Virus genome (UHGV): UHGV-0150885
DNA from: a virus
DNA: 57,380 bases
Strand: one strand, 5' to 3'
In this document: one piece after another, positions 27,413-28,175 of the stretch
Position numbering within the stretch: the stretch's first letter is position 1
Layout: each line of letters starts with the position of its first letter
Made by a program: the position numbers and the translations under genes
The notes under the pieces: generated by a model
What the model saw: only the letters and a program-made list of their open reading frames with translations
Databases searched by the model: none
Told to the model about the DNA's origin: nothing

Positions 27413-27502
27413 ATGGTTGCATCGATATTAACATTCATTGGCGGTATGGCGGCTGGATTTATTCTTTGCCTGTTTCTGGTAGTCATGTCTATGCAGAGGT
27501 AA
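27413..27502 (+). CDS. Tiny hydrophobic peptide 1 (29 aa)
   Basis: MVASILTFIGGMAAGFILCLFLVVMSMQR; SD GAGG; immediately after HExxH gene stop. Confidence 0.4.
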   Translation: MVASILTFIGGMAAGFILCLFLVVMSMQR

Positions 27503-27504
27503 TT

Positions 27505-27576
27505 ATGGGCGACTTCCTGTTACTGATAGTTTTGTTGTTTGTTGGCCTTGCATTGTTCGATGTTATAACGAGGTAA
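27505..27576 (+). CDS. Tiny hydrophobic peptide 2 (23 aa)
   Basis: MGDFLLLIVLLFVGLALFDVITR; SD GAGGT; 2-nt gap from previous stop. Confidence 0.4.
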   Translation: MGDFLLLIVLLFVGLALFDVITR

Positions 27577-27579
27577 ATT

Positions 27580-27654
27580 ATGAACGCCTACGATCTCATC
27601 TGGTTGTTGGTGCTTATCGTGGGTATTGGCGTGAATATTTATAGATTATGGTGA
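27580..27654 (+). CDS. Tiny hydrophobic peptide 3 (24 aa)
   Basis: MNAYDLIWLLVLIVGIGVNIYRLW; SD GAGGT; paralogue of peptide 5. Confidence 0.4.
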   Translation: MNAYDLIWLLVLIVGIGVNIYRLW

Positions 27655-27658
27655 CGCA

Positions 27659-27733
27659 ATGGAGCTTCACGAAATTATAGCGTGTGTGGCCTTTGCCTGT
27701 GTCCTGTATTTCTGGTGGAAAAACGTCGTATAG
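27659..27733 (+). CDS. Tiny hydrophobic peptide 4 (24 aa)
   Basis: MELHEIIACVAFACVLYFWWKNVV. Confidence 0.35.
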   Translation: MELHEIIACVAFACVLYFWWKNVV

Positions 27734-27741
27734 GTGAAAGC

Positions 27742-27822
27742 ATGAACGCATATGAAATGTTATTACTGGTGGCAGTCGTTGTGGTTATTGCTGTGGATGT
27801 TTACCGGGAGCTTAAAGAATGA
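27742..27822 (+). CDS. Tiny hydrophobic peptide 5 (26 aa)
   Basis: MNAYEMLLLVAVVVVIAVDVYRELKE; SD AGGTG. Confidence 0.4.
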   Translation: MNAYEMLLLVAVVVVIAVDVYRELKE

Positions 27823-27887
27823 AAGAATCAGATTTTTGGTGCATGGTTTTAGCTATTGTCATTATCGCCCTGGCTTTCGCCATTTAG
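27819..27887 (+). CDS. Tiny hydrophobic peptide 6 (22 aa)
   Basis: MKESDFWCMVLAIVIIALAFAI; ATGA overlap with peptide 5. Confidence 0.35.
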   Translation: MKESDFWCMVLAIVIIALAFAI

Positions 27888-27951
27888 CCCGGACGCGCAT
27901 TTTATGCGCTTCCAAGAATTAACGATATTAAATAGCCAGTAGGGGAATATC

Positions 27952-28095
27952 ATGTTCGAGTTTCTTGATCTGCTTATGTTCTTGCTTTGTTCTGGTCTGC
28001 TTATTGTCGCGATAATGTTATGCGCATACGTGATTGTAATGATTGGTGCGCTCATTCACAAAGAAGTAAAACAGAGATTTAAGGGTAAACAATGA
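27952..28095 (+). CDS. Small hydrophobic peptide 7 (47 aa)
   Basis: MFEFLDLLMFLLCSGLLIVAIMLCAYVIVMIGALIHKEVKQRFKGKQ; SD AGGGGA. Confidence 0.4.
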   Translation: MFEFLDLLMFLLCSGLLIVAIMLCAYVIVMIGALIHKEVKQRFKGKQ

Positions 28096-28175
28096 AAGAA
28101 TTATTCGACTGGTTGGAAGTGTTTACATACTGTGCAAGTTTTGTTGCTTGCGTATATATCATCAATAAATATTGA
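28092..28175 (+). CDS. Tiny hydrophobic peptide 8 (27 aa)
   Basis: MKELFDWLEVFTYCASFVACVYIINKY; ATGA overlap with peptide 7. Confidence 0.35.
   Translation: MKELFDWLEVFTYCASFVACVYIINKY

Follow-up and report, generated by a model that had tools for sequence, protein, structure and literature searches.

Small hypothetical membrane proteins are a common feature of phages, and tandem arrangements of very short open reading frames (ORFs) have been described for the phenol-soluble modulin (PSM)-alpha operon, the ldr and ibs repeats and genes VII and IX of inoviruses. In the literature we found no account of tandem arrays of small transmembrane (TM) proteins in phages, and no description of a dense, ordered and combinatorially variable array of up to 13 single-helix genes in the late operon of a tailed phage. 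Here, we analyze such an array in the virus genome UHGV-0150885, a metagenomic genome (contig Ga0495776_146573, JGI sample 3300045988) of 57,380 nucleotides that we refer to as the window. Eight consecutive plus-strand ORFs of 22-47 codons occupy positions 27413-28175, between a gene encoding an HExxH protein and the gene for the small terminase subunit (TerS). Based on the evidence presented below, they almost certainly encode real, translated membrane micro-proteins. The author of a first-pass annotation of the window knew of no described lambdoid function that needs an array of this kind, in agreement with our reading of the literature.

The components of the array are listed below. Family letters refer to a clustering of peptides from related loci, and dN/dS is the ratio of non-synonymous to synonymous substitution rates within a family.

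27413-27502, plus strand: ORF1, family L, 29 residues, MVASILTFIGGMAAGFILCLFLVVMSMQR; dN/dS 0.26
27505-27576, plus strand: ORF2, family S, 23 residues, MGDFLLLIVLLFVGLALFDVITR; found in 3 loci, with too few variants for dN/dS
27580-27654, plus strand: ORF3, family O, 24 residues, MNAYDLIWLLVLIVGIGVNIYRLW; dN/dS 0.12; paralogue of ORF5
27659-27733, plus strand: ORF4, family R, 24 residues, MELHEIIACVAFACVLYFWWKNVV; allelic counterpart of family F elsewhere (F-R z 7.6)
27742-27822, plus strand: ORF5, family B, 26 residues, MNAYEMLLLVAVVVVIAVDVYRELKE; present in 50 of 52 arrays; dN/dS 0.22
27819-27887, plus strand: ORF6, family J, 22 residues, MKESDFWCMVLAIVIIALAFAI; start overlaps the ORF5 stop (ATGA)
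27888-27951: 64-nt spacer, the only non-coding spacer of the array, holding a hairpin and the Shine-Dalgarno (SD) motif of ORF7
27952-28095, plus strand: ORF7, family M, 47 residues with a basic C-terminal tail, MFEFLDLLMFLLCSGLLIVAIMLCAYVIVMIGALIHKEVKQRFKGKQ; dN/dS 0.25
28092-28175, plus strand: ORF8, family C, 27 residues, MKELFDWLEVFTYCASFVACVYIINKY; always the last gene; dN/dS 0.07

All eight ORFs are present, with peptide sequences exactly as quoted in the first-pass annotation. From the HExxH stop codon through the TerS ATG, stop-to-start distances are 2, 2, 3, 4, 8, -4 (ATGA), 64, -4 (ATGA) and 10 nt, and an SD-like motif (GAGG, GAGGT, AGGTGA, GGGAG, AGGGG or AAGGG) lies 5-10 nt upstream of each of the eight starts. 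With its own SD motif for every ORF and a spacing of only a few nucleotides, ribosomes would be handed from one ORF to the next. To quantify the density of the array, we used a detector that accepts ORFs with an ATG start, a length of 20 codons or more and a Kyte-Doolittle value of 2 or more in the best 15-residue window. Within the 775-bp gap between the flanking genes, eight plus-strand ORFs were detected, covering 88% of the sequence, and none on the minus strand; 2000 dinucleotide-preserving shuffles of the gap contained a mean of 0.75 and a maximum of 4 such ORFs. The rest of the 57-kb window, lambda and P22 showed at most 2-3 such ORFs per 800 nt. At codon position 2 of the array, 52% of bases are T, which is the signature of hydrophobic codons. 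The hairpin in the 64-nt spacer (GCGCA-TTTTA-TGCGC, 27895-27909) is without a T-tract, is no more stable than shuffled sequence (z -1.4) and was present in 11 of the compared loci only. For these reasons, and because positions 25000-28700 gave no Rfam match, a structured RNA was rejected as an explanation.

A set of 51 related loci was assembled for comparison, comprising 47 IMG/VR loci found with the HExxH protein as bait and 4 GenBank/RefSeq loci. Translation signals were evaluated over 45 distinct arrays, architectures and families over 52 arrays. In all 51 related loci, 3-13 co-directional ORFs fill the interval between the HExxH and TerS genes (318-1154 bp). They have 20-47 codons and a single TM-like stretch each, and mean ORF coverage in the 45 distinct arrays is 89%. 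The first ORF begins 2 nt past the HExxH stop codon in 44 of the 45 distinct arrays, the last one ends 10-11 nt upstream of the TerS ATG in 40 of them, and most stop-to-start distances lie between -8 and +17 nt. An SD-like tetramer at -16 to -4 precedes 335 of 416 starts (81%), compared with 20% at random positions. The SD motifs and translational coupling proposed from the window alone thus receive statistical support.

Purifying selection was observed in the annotated frames only. Pooled over 17 families (Nei-Gojobori), dN/dS was 0.19 in frame versus 0.95 and 1.61 in the +1 and +2 frames, respectively, and all 17 families fall between 0.04 and 0.30. For TerS in the same loci, a value of 0.13 was obtained. 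Within families, G/A/S/C and N-terminal acidic residues are nearly invariant while changes in the hydrophobic core are mostly swaps among I, L, V, F and M. It is therefore the peptides themselves, and not the mere act of translation, that are under selection. Judged from sequence comparison, the ORFs are real genes and not chance ORFs, as the first-pass annotation had argued, and the frame-specific conservation in relatives on which that argument was staked is what the 51 loci display. Two other origins were considered and rejected. Chance ORFs arising from T-rich DNA are ruled out by the dinucleotide shuffles together with the off-frame dN/dS controls. Fragments of a decayed gene for a multi-pass membrane protein are ruled out by ORF boundaries, starts and SD motifs that are conserved in 45 arrays under purifying selection; two database searches with ORF7 likewise returned no large related homologue.

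The same data bear on a purely translational explanation. The ORFs might serve only as a relay that keeps ribosomes on the late mRNA, prevents polarity and delivers ribosomes to TerS, in which case the peptide sequence would be irrelevant. The tight coupling along the whole chain and the nearly constant distance between the last ORF and the TerS ATG are what such a relay would require. However, the low in-frame dN/dS of every family, set against values of about 1 off-frame, indicates constraint on amino acids, and the conserved G/A/S/C and acidic positions argue for a function at the peptide level. Arrays of three genes also exist, so length is not required. Taken together, we regard the relay as so improbable that it hardly needs to be considered further.

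Clustering yielded about 20 peptide families whose relative order is fixed but which combine into 38 architectures among 52 arrays, the order in the window being L-S-O-R-B-J-M-C. The only universal member is the last gene, which in each of the 52 arrays is a member of family C or of T, an allele of C. Several routes of diversification can be recognized. ORF3 and ORF5 (families O and B), proposed as paralogues in the first-pass annotation, are clearly related (z = 8.4 versus composition-preserving shuffles). The MKE start shared by ORF6 and ORF8, which had been cited alongside this pair as an argument for selection, did not hold up, the similarity of the two peptides being no greater than expected by chance. 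ORF6 (family J) instead belongs to a superfamily of 22-23 residues with the pattern M-x-x-x-D-F, formed by families N, D, J, Z and E (z 4-8). Family F is an O/R chimera at the nucleotide level, its first 27 nt being 81% identical to O and its last 27 nt 89% identical to R. The H cassette is inserted exactly at ORF boundaries, between the spacer following F and the ATG of B. Rare inactivating point mutations in array genes (ATG to ATA, ATG to ACG, an internal stop) indicate that single members are dispensable. In one related locus (L040, 3661-3843), neighboring genes of the MDxxIIAGLIG- and MIDPLIILS- families are fused by loss of a stop codon, resulting in a 60-residue ORF with two helices. 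Fusions of this type are a possible route from single-TM to multi-TM proteins.

Relatives of the window are the temperate E. coli siphophages mEp021, mEp010, mEp044, mEp515, mEp013 and mEp554 as well as MagusPhagus (80-85% nucleotide identity), and related prophages are present in 31 of 5426 complete E. coli genomes. The mEpimmI (mEp021-like) coliphages have been described as a temperate, Nus-dependent, non-lambdoid group that is prevalent in the gut and, in the clinical collection from which it came, reached about the frequency of lambdoid phages (PMC11893012). The label "lambdoid" used in the first-pass annotation is wrong for this genome and needs to be corrected, because its relatives belong to this group. 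The same paper, the only one describing mEpimmI phages, reports their morphology; transmembrane or small ORFs are not mentioned in it and the word "terminase" is never used.

One cassette extends beyond this group. ORF1 (family L) with its SD flank has nucleotide homologues in 84 further phage records, and those inspected are rV5-like virulent phages. The rV5 homologue (MIASILTFMGGVAFGFIVCLFIVIMSMRG, 29 codons) lies at 2502-2591 of locus L058 (rV5, DQ832317; 96254-96343 of the record), in the gap between ORF137 and ORF138, and is unannotated in the original record. Homologues in MiataMamis and the BASEL phages Bas50, Bas55 and Bas56 are annotated as hypothetical. In rV5-like phages, the neighbors of family L are unrelated small ORFs that are annotated as hypothetical only. 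The stretch of rV5 that houses the homologue comprises "88 mainly small ORFs" and does not belong to the proposed late unit (PMC3606486), which argues for a function in the lytic cycle that requires neither the lysis cassette nor the HExxH gene or TerS. The remaining cassettes are restricted to mEpimmI phages. The array of one related locus (L010) matched mEp-group phages only, and a degenerate ORF8 pattern matched 40 IMG/VR contigs, 39 of them phages already found via the HExxH protein and the remaining one a 5-kb fragment. Among 100,044 species-representative genomes, the ORF8 and ORF1 patterns each gave 0 matches. A wider distribution of the array was rejected on the basis of these pattern searches and the L010 comparison.

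At the level of the individual peptides, the prediction of one TM helix each is borne out by hydrophobicity and moment analysis. The best 18-residue segments have a mean Eisenberg hydrophobicity of 0.65-0.96 and a helical moment of 0.09-0.21, which places them in the transmembrane class. They group with KdpF, MgtS and M13 g7p and not with the amphipathic PSMs (moment about 0.5). Best 15-residue Kyte-Doolittle values range from 2.1 to 3.3, net charge from -2 to +2, and every peptide has no more than 50 residues with one TM-type helix. Most peptides start with M-x-x-x-[D/E] and thus have an acidic N-terminus, and several carry K or R near the C-terminus (ORF3 YRLW, ORF4 WWKNVV, ORF5 YRELKE, ORF7 HKEVKQRFKGKQ, ORF8 INKY). 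The orientation of membrane proteins follows the positive-inside rule, and acidic N-terminal together with basic C-terminal ends therefore predict an N-out, C-in orientation. Further, peptides of 22-29 residues are shorter than the ribosomal exit tunnel, so insertion would have to be post-translational.

Database searches placed these peptides outside described families. None of the eight had a meaningful match to a Pfam or PHROG family, and ORF1, 5, 7 and 8 had no match in NCBIfam or among the defense proteins of PADLOC. Exact copies of six of the eight peptides could not be found among 15 billion predicted proteins, and RefSeq prophage annotation includes one or none of the eight. For ORF7, ten clusters were found in 5.8 billion proteins, all 72-100% identical. 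By these searches, the array peptides belong to no known family.

Size and hydrophobicity of the peptides are similar to those of Ibs, Ldr and TisB-type toxins, and tandem tiny ORFs with an SD motif each recall the PSM-alpha operon. The array could thus be imagined to encode membrane-active toxins of the type I or PSM kind which depolarize or permeabilize the inner membrane and shut down or kill the host. Yet none of the type I toxin families Hok/Gef, Ldr, Ibs, TisB, ShoB and Fst, nor any other toxin family, appeared in a Pfam scan of the eight peptides at E values up to 10. Signals of an antisense antitoxin were likewise not found by consensus scan: 4 kb contained a single minus-strand promoter-like site (28061-28033), fewer than in shuffles, and no minus-strand terminator. 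Antisense regulation of ORF7 from this site was rejected, since promoter-like sites are below chance expectation and the -35 hexamer falls on a His/Tyr-Lys codon pair that varies among the aligned loci. The low helical moments also set the peptides apart from amphipathic cytolytic peptides, including PSM-like peptides and leaderless bacteriocins. Moreover, 8-13 depolarizing peptides co-expressed with a membrane-tethered endolysin should trigger lysis too early. If the peptides were generally toxic, it would thus be difficult to explain why every member is under strong purifying selection. A toxin function is thus very unlikely.

The genes flanking the array agree with the first-pass annotation, which had placed a lysis cassette upstream and the terminase downstream; Pfam matches and the ORF list bear this out.

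25380-25398: terminator-like hairpin just upstream of the holin gene
25421-25633, plus strand: holin, 70 residues, two TM segments; holin Pfam matches for the same gene in related locus L052
25630-26121, plus strand: endolysin with a Gly/Ala-rich N-terminus resembling a signal-anchor-release (SAR) domain; Pfam Phage_lysozyme
26097-26579, plus strand: Rz spanin, Pfam Phage_lysis, with an embedded Rz1 lipoprotein ORF at about 26317-26511
26856-27410, plus strand: HExxH protein, 184 residues; stop codon 2 nt before ORF1
28186-28671, plus strand: small terminase TerS, Pfam Sf6_terminase
28668-30152, plus strand: large terminase, Pfam Terminase_6C

A simple consensus scan of the plus strand between 25400 and 28350 gave no sigma-70-like promoter or terminator site. 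Given the terminator in front of the holin gene and none on this strand until the terminase, we infer from position and scans that the array is part of the late transcript. A moron-type unit with its own promoter and terminator was not seen in the consensus scan, and virulent phages carry family L as well. Between the Rz and HExxH genes, at 26740-26800, lies a weak terminator-like hairpin (AAACGG…CCGTTT with a T-rich run behind it) that was not called by the scan; it corresponds to the predicted "TERM_6" of mEp021. Considering gene content, selection and position together, we are highly confident that the array is part of the late transcription unit of an mEpimmI temperate coliphage, in which it forms an operon segment of translated micro-genes that is specific to the lineage.

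This position raises the question of lysis timing. The SAR-like endolysin and the 70-residue two-TM holin suggest a pinholin/SAR-type lysis system, and array helices in the same membrane might shift holin triggering or endolysin release, in an antiholin-like or pro-holin manner. The spanin gene ends about 830 bp upstream of the array, and both would be transcribed in the same late unit. Given the behavior of SAR-domain endolysins, lysis in such a phage should be very sensitive to the state of the membrane. ORF7 combines a TM segment with a basic C-terminal tail, like many holins, and has a weak match to the PHROG holin family phrog_920 (E 0.0024) that covers the TM segment and basic tail only; ORF4 has a match to Holin_SPP1 of 15.7 bits, below the cut-off of 27. 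The threshold of a curated holin model was reached by no array member. In an exhaustive HMMER search of 1.84 billion representative proteins, ORF7 had no remote homologues, holins included, and returned its own family only. ORF7 as a holin relative was rejected on the basis of this search and the weakness of the PHROG match. The content of the arrays also speaks against a link to the lysis genes. Twelve loci with identical holins carry 12 different arrays of 3-12 genes, arrays differ even among loci with identical holin, endolysin and Rz proteins, and the distinct holin type of the window, shared with locus L012, is not paired with a distinct array. This uncoupling argues against specific holin-peptide pairs while a generic effect on the membrane state would still be conceivable. 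Further, rV5-like phages carry family L in a non-late region where none of the hypothetical neighbors is annotated as a lysis gene, and P22-like phages have soluble ORFs at the equivalent site. On balance, we consider a role in lysis timing unlikely, but it is the main rival of the function proposed below. In a more distant relative (L055, 2752-3273), an HNH endonuclease gene is inserted between endolysin and Rz; its micro-gene array is nearly identical.

The second neighbor of interest is the HExxH protein. Residues H79, E80, H83 and E106 are invariant in the alignment, and an AlphaFold2 model (AF2; mean confidence score pLDDT 77) shows a core of a beta-sheet plus two helices, as described for minimal zincin-like domains (PMC5512222). 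Motif, downstream Glu ligand and modeled core together identify the protein, at the level of prediction, as a minimal zincin-like metallopeptidase. A structure-based assignment of function did not succeed, since the only match from structure comparison was a weak one to a zincin and no PDB entry was matched at the sequence level; a 57%-identical homologue is named "PolyVal metallopeptidase" by one source. Behind the conserved zincin core (residues 1-125) come an acidic coiled segment and a basic tail that is also conserved, KKGKRKAKAKEALVPRVMSFKRG. P22-like homologues (Orf129, 129 residues) match the core only and are too short for coil and tail. In ST64T, L and epsilon34, homologues are found at the same position (gene order: lysis genes, Orf118, Orf129, Orf134, TerS), and no TM array is present. 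P22 and HK620 have a further HExxH homologue (hkcC) that adjoins sieA.

The first-pass annotation had suggested that the micro-proteins could be substrates or partners of this enzyme, that is, an array of precursor peptides beside a processing enzyme. The HExxH gene is always immediately upstream, with the nearly invariant 2-nt gap noted above, and the extra coil and tail distinguish the mEpimmI protein from its P22-like homologues. These observations are outweighed by several others. Peptidase homologues occur at the same site without a TM array, family L is found among unrelated small ORFs in rV5-like phages, and the peptides are nearly identical where the peptidase has diverged to 57% identity. 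For these three reasons, a substrate or partner link is improbable. In addition, the peptides have no leader/core organization and almost no extramembrane sequence to cleave, and there are no export or immunity genes nearby, so that the locus does not resemble an array of precursors of ribosomally synthesized and post-translationally modified peptides (RiPPs) or of bacteriocins. The suggestion is thus considerably weakened, and we would give it very little weight.

In one related locus (L045, about 4405-4569) and four other arrays, about 150 bp of extra sequence between the last micro-gene and TerS encode a small acidic soluble ORF (…MNDEELKIADEIRKALDSAENNETIYLSEQEVEKMMNEFKLRFGKDD). Outside the array, the window contains six more free-standing plus-strand small ORFs of 21-60 residues with one TM-like stretch. 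They do not overlap larger ORFs and most have SD-like motifs; two are adjacent at 13.4-13.6 kb.

13391-13504, plus strand: small ORF with one TM-like stretch
13513-13632, plus strand: small ORF with one TM-like stretch
15142-15324, plus strand: small ORF with one TM-like stretch
15644-15733, plus strand: small ORF with one TM-like stretch
15833-15898, plus strand: small ORF with one TM-like stretch
42883-42969, plus strand: small ORF with one TM-like stretch

The phage may therefore carry further unannotated membrane micro-genes outside the array.

As to what the array does, our best guess, offered tentatively, is a late-expressed repertoire of helices that bind inner-membrane proteins. The peptides would be made late in the lytic cycle, alongside lysis and packaging proteins. 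Being too short for co-translational targeting, they would insert into the inner membrane after translation, with the N-terminus out and the C-terminus in. Since almost the whole of each peptide is buried in the bilayer, their action would depend on contacts between helices within the membrane, and each would bind a larger inner-membrane protein that belongs to the host or to a competing element. In E. coli, the single-TM regulators AcrZ, MgtS, SgrT and KdpF provide the analogy from which we infer intramembrane binding. The locus as a whole would represent a recombining repertoire whose members are individually dispensable, with about 20 families, gain and loss of cassettes, duplication, chimera formation and exchange with virulent phages. 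Such variability, paralogous expansion and exchange fit functions in conflict or takeover better than a core role in lysis. Candidate functions would include blocking membrane-acting abortive-infection effectors, blocking DNA entry by secondary phages and tuning host membrane enzymes.

Several points weigh against this proposal. Late expression is odd for counter-defense or exclusion functions, which are usually early, and a position right behind the lysis cassette would also be expected for a lysis-related role. The promoter and terminator scans were simple consensus matches, and a weak internal promoter that is active in lysogens could have escaped them. The selection analysis consists of pooled pairwise comparisons of related sequences and is not phylogeny-corrected, for which the off-frame control is a partial remedy. 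Finally, ORF8 (family C or T), universal and very conserved, may have a role that differs from that of the variable members, possibly one linked to TerS expression.

A more specific version of the repertoire proposal, which we consider speculative and rather doubtful, is that the peptides are natural "traptamers": recombining bare TM helices, each of which would have been selected for binding to the TM domain of its own inner-membrane target. These targets would be TM effectors of abortive-infection systems, the DNA-entry channels of competing phages, or host insertases or proteases. If true, the array would be a new kind of phage conflict locus, made of genes for 22-30 residues that annotation pipelines miss, which diversifies by cassette exchange, duplication and chimera formation and swaps modules with virulent phages.

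Independent of function, the array was missed by standard annotation and is a clean case of phage coding capacity lost below length cut-offs. In this dense block of genes of at most 30 codons, selection nearly reaches the strength seen for an essential packaging gene. Because mEp021, mEp010 and MagusPhagus are cultured phages that infect E. coli K-12, a tractable system is available. It allows one to examine the capabilities of a protein that is no more than one TM helix, and to follow the evolution of such helices through duplication, formation of chimeras, fusion to two-TM proteins and horizontal transfer of cassettes. If the peptides do bind specific host proteins, they would be ready-made intramembrane inhibitors.

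The array can be compared with several known systems. The type I toxins Ibs, Ldr, Hok/Gef, TisB and ShoB are tiny, very hydrophobic single helices, and some of their loci are tandem, like the array. However, each has its own promoter and antisense RNA antitoxin, whereas the array is one coupled operon with no antisense signal and no family match. The staphylococcal PSM-alpha operon, with four consecutive ORFs of 20-22 codons and an SD motif each, is the best-known tandem micro-ORF array. Its products are amphipathic secreted cytolysins, in contrast to the uniformly hydrophobic TM helices described here.

Among phages, genes VII, IX and VIII of filamentous phages encode single-TM proteins of 32-50 residues and share with the array a back-to-back, coupled arrangement and acidic N-termini; their products insert independently of Sec. 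They are inovirus virion components, whereas the genome analyzed here carries terminase, portal and siphovirus tail genes. Holins, antiholins and accessory lysis proteins (lambda S107, P1 LydB, P2 LysA, Mu gp19-25) are likewise small membrane proteins of late operons, encoded beside the endolysin. These proteins have at least 65 residues and 1-4 TM segments, are encoded by no more than two genes and evolve together with the lysis cassette, in contrast to an array whose content is independent of the holin allele. Single-gene lysis proteins (LysM with 37 residues, MS2 L, phiX174 E) provide the precedent of a phage peptide with essentially one TM helix that can specifically inhibit a membrane enzyme of the host, for instance MurJ or MraY. 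Unlike the array, they occur as one gene per genome in ssRNA and ssDNA phages without a holin-endolysin system.

The regulators AcrZ, MgtS, MgrB, SgrT, KdpF and CydX are encoded by single chromosomal genes with their own regulation and have no sequence similarity to the array peptides, which are products of 3-13 coupled phage late genes. In build, the two groups are nonetheless alike, with 20-50 residues, one TM helix and little extramembrane sequence. Regulators of the AcrZ/MgtS type exert their effect by binding to a larger protein of the inner membrane, as we propose for the array peptides.

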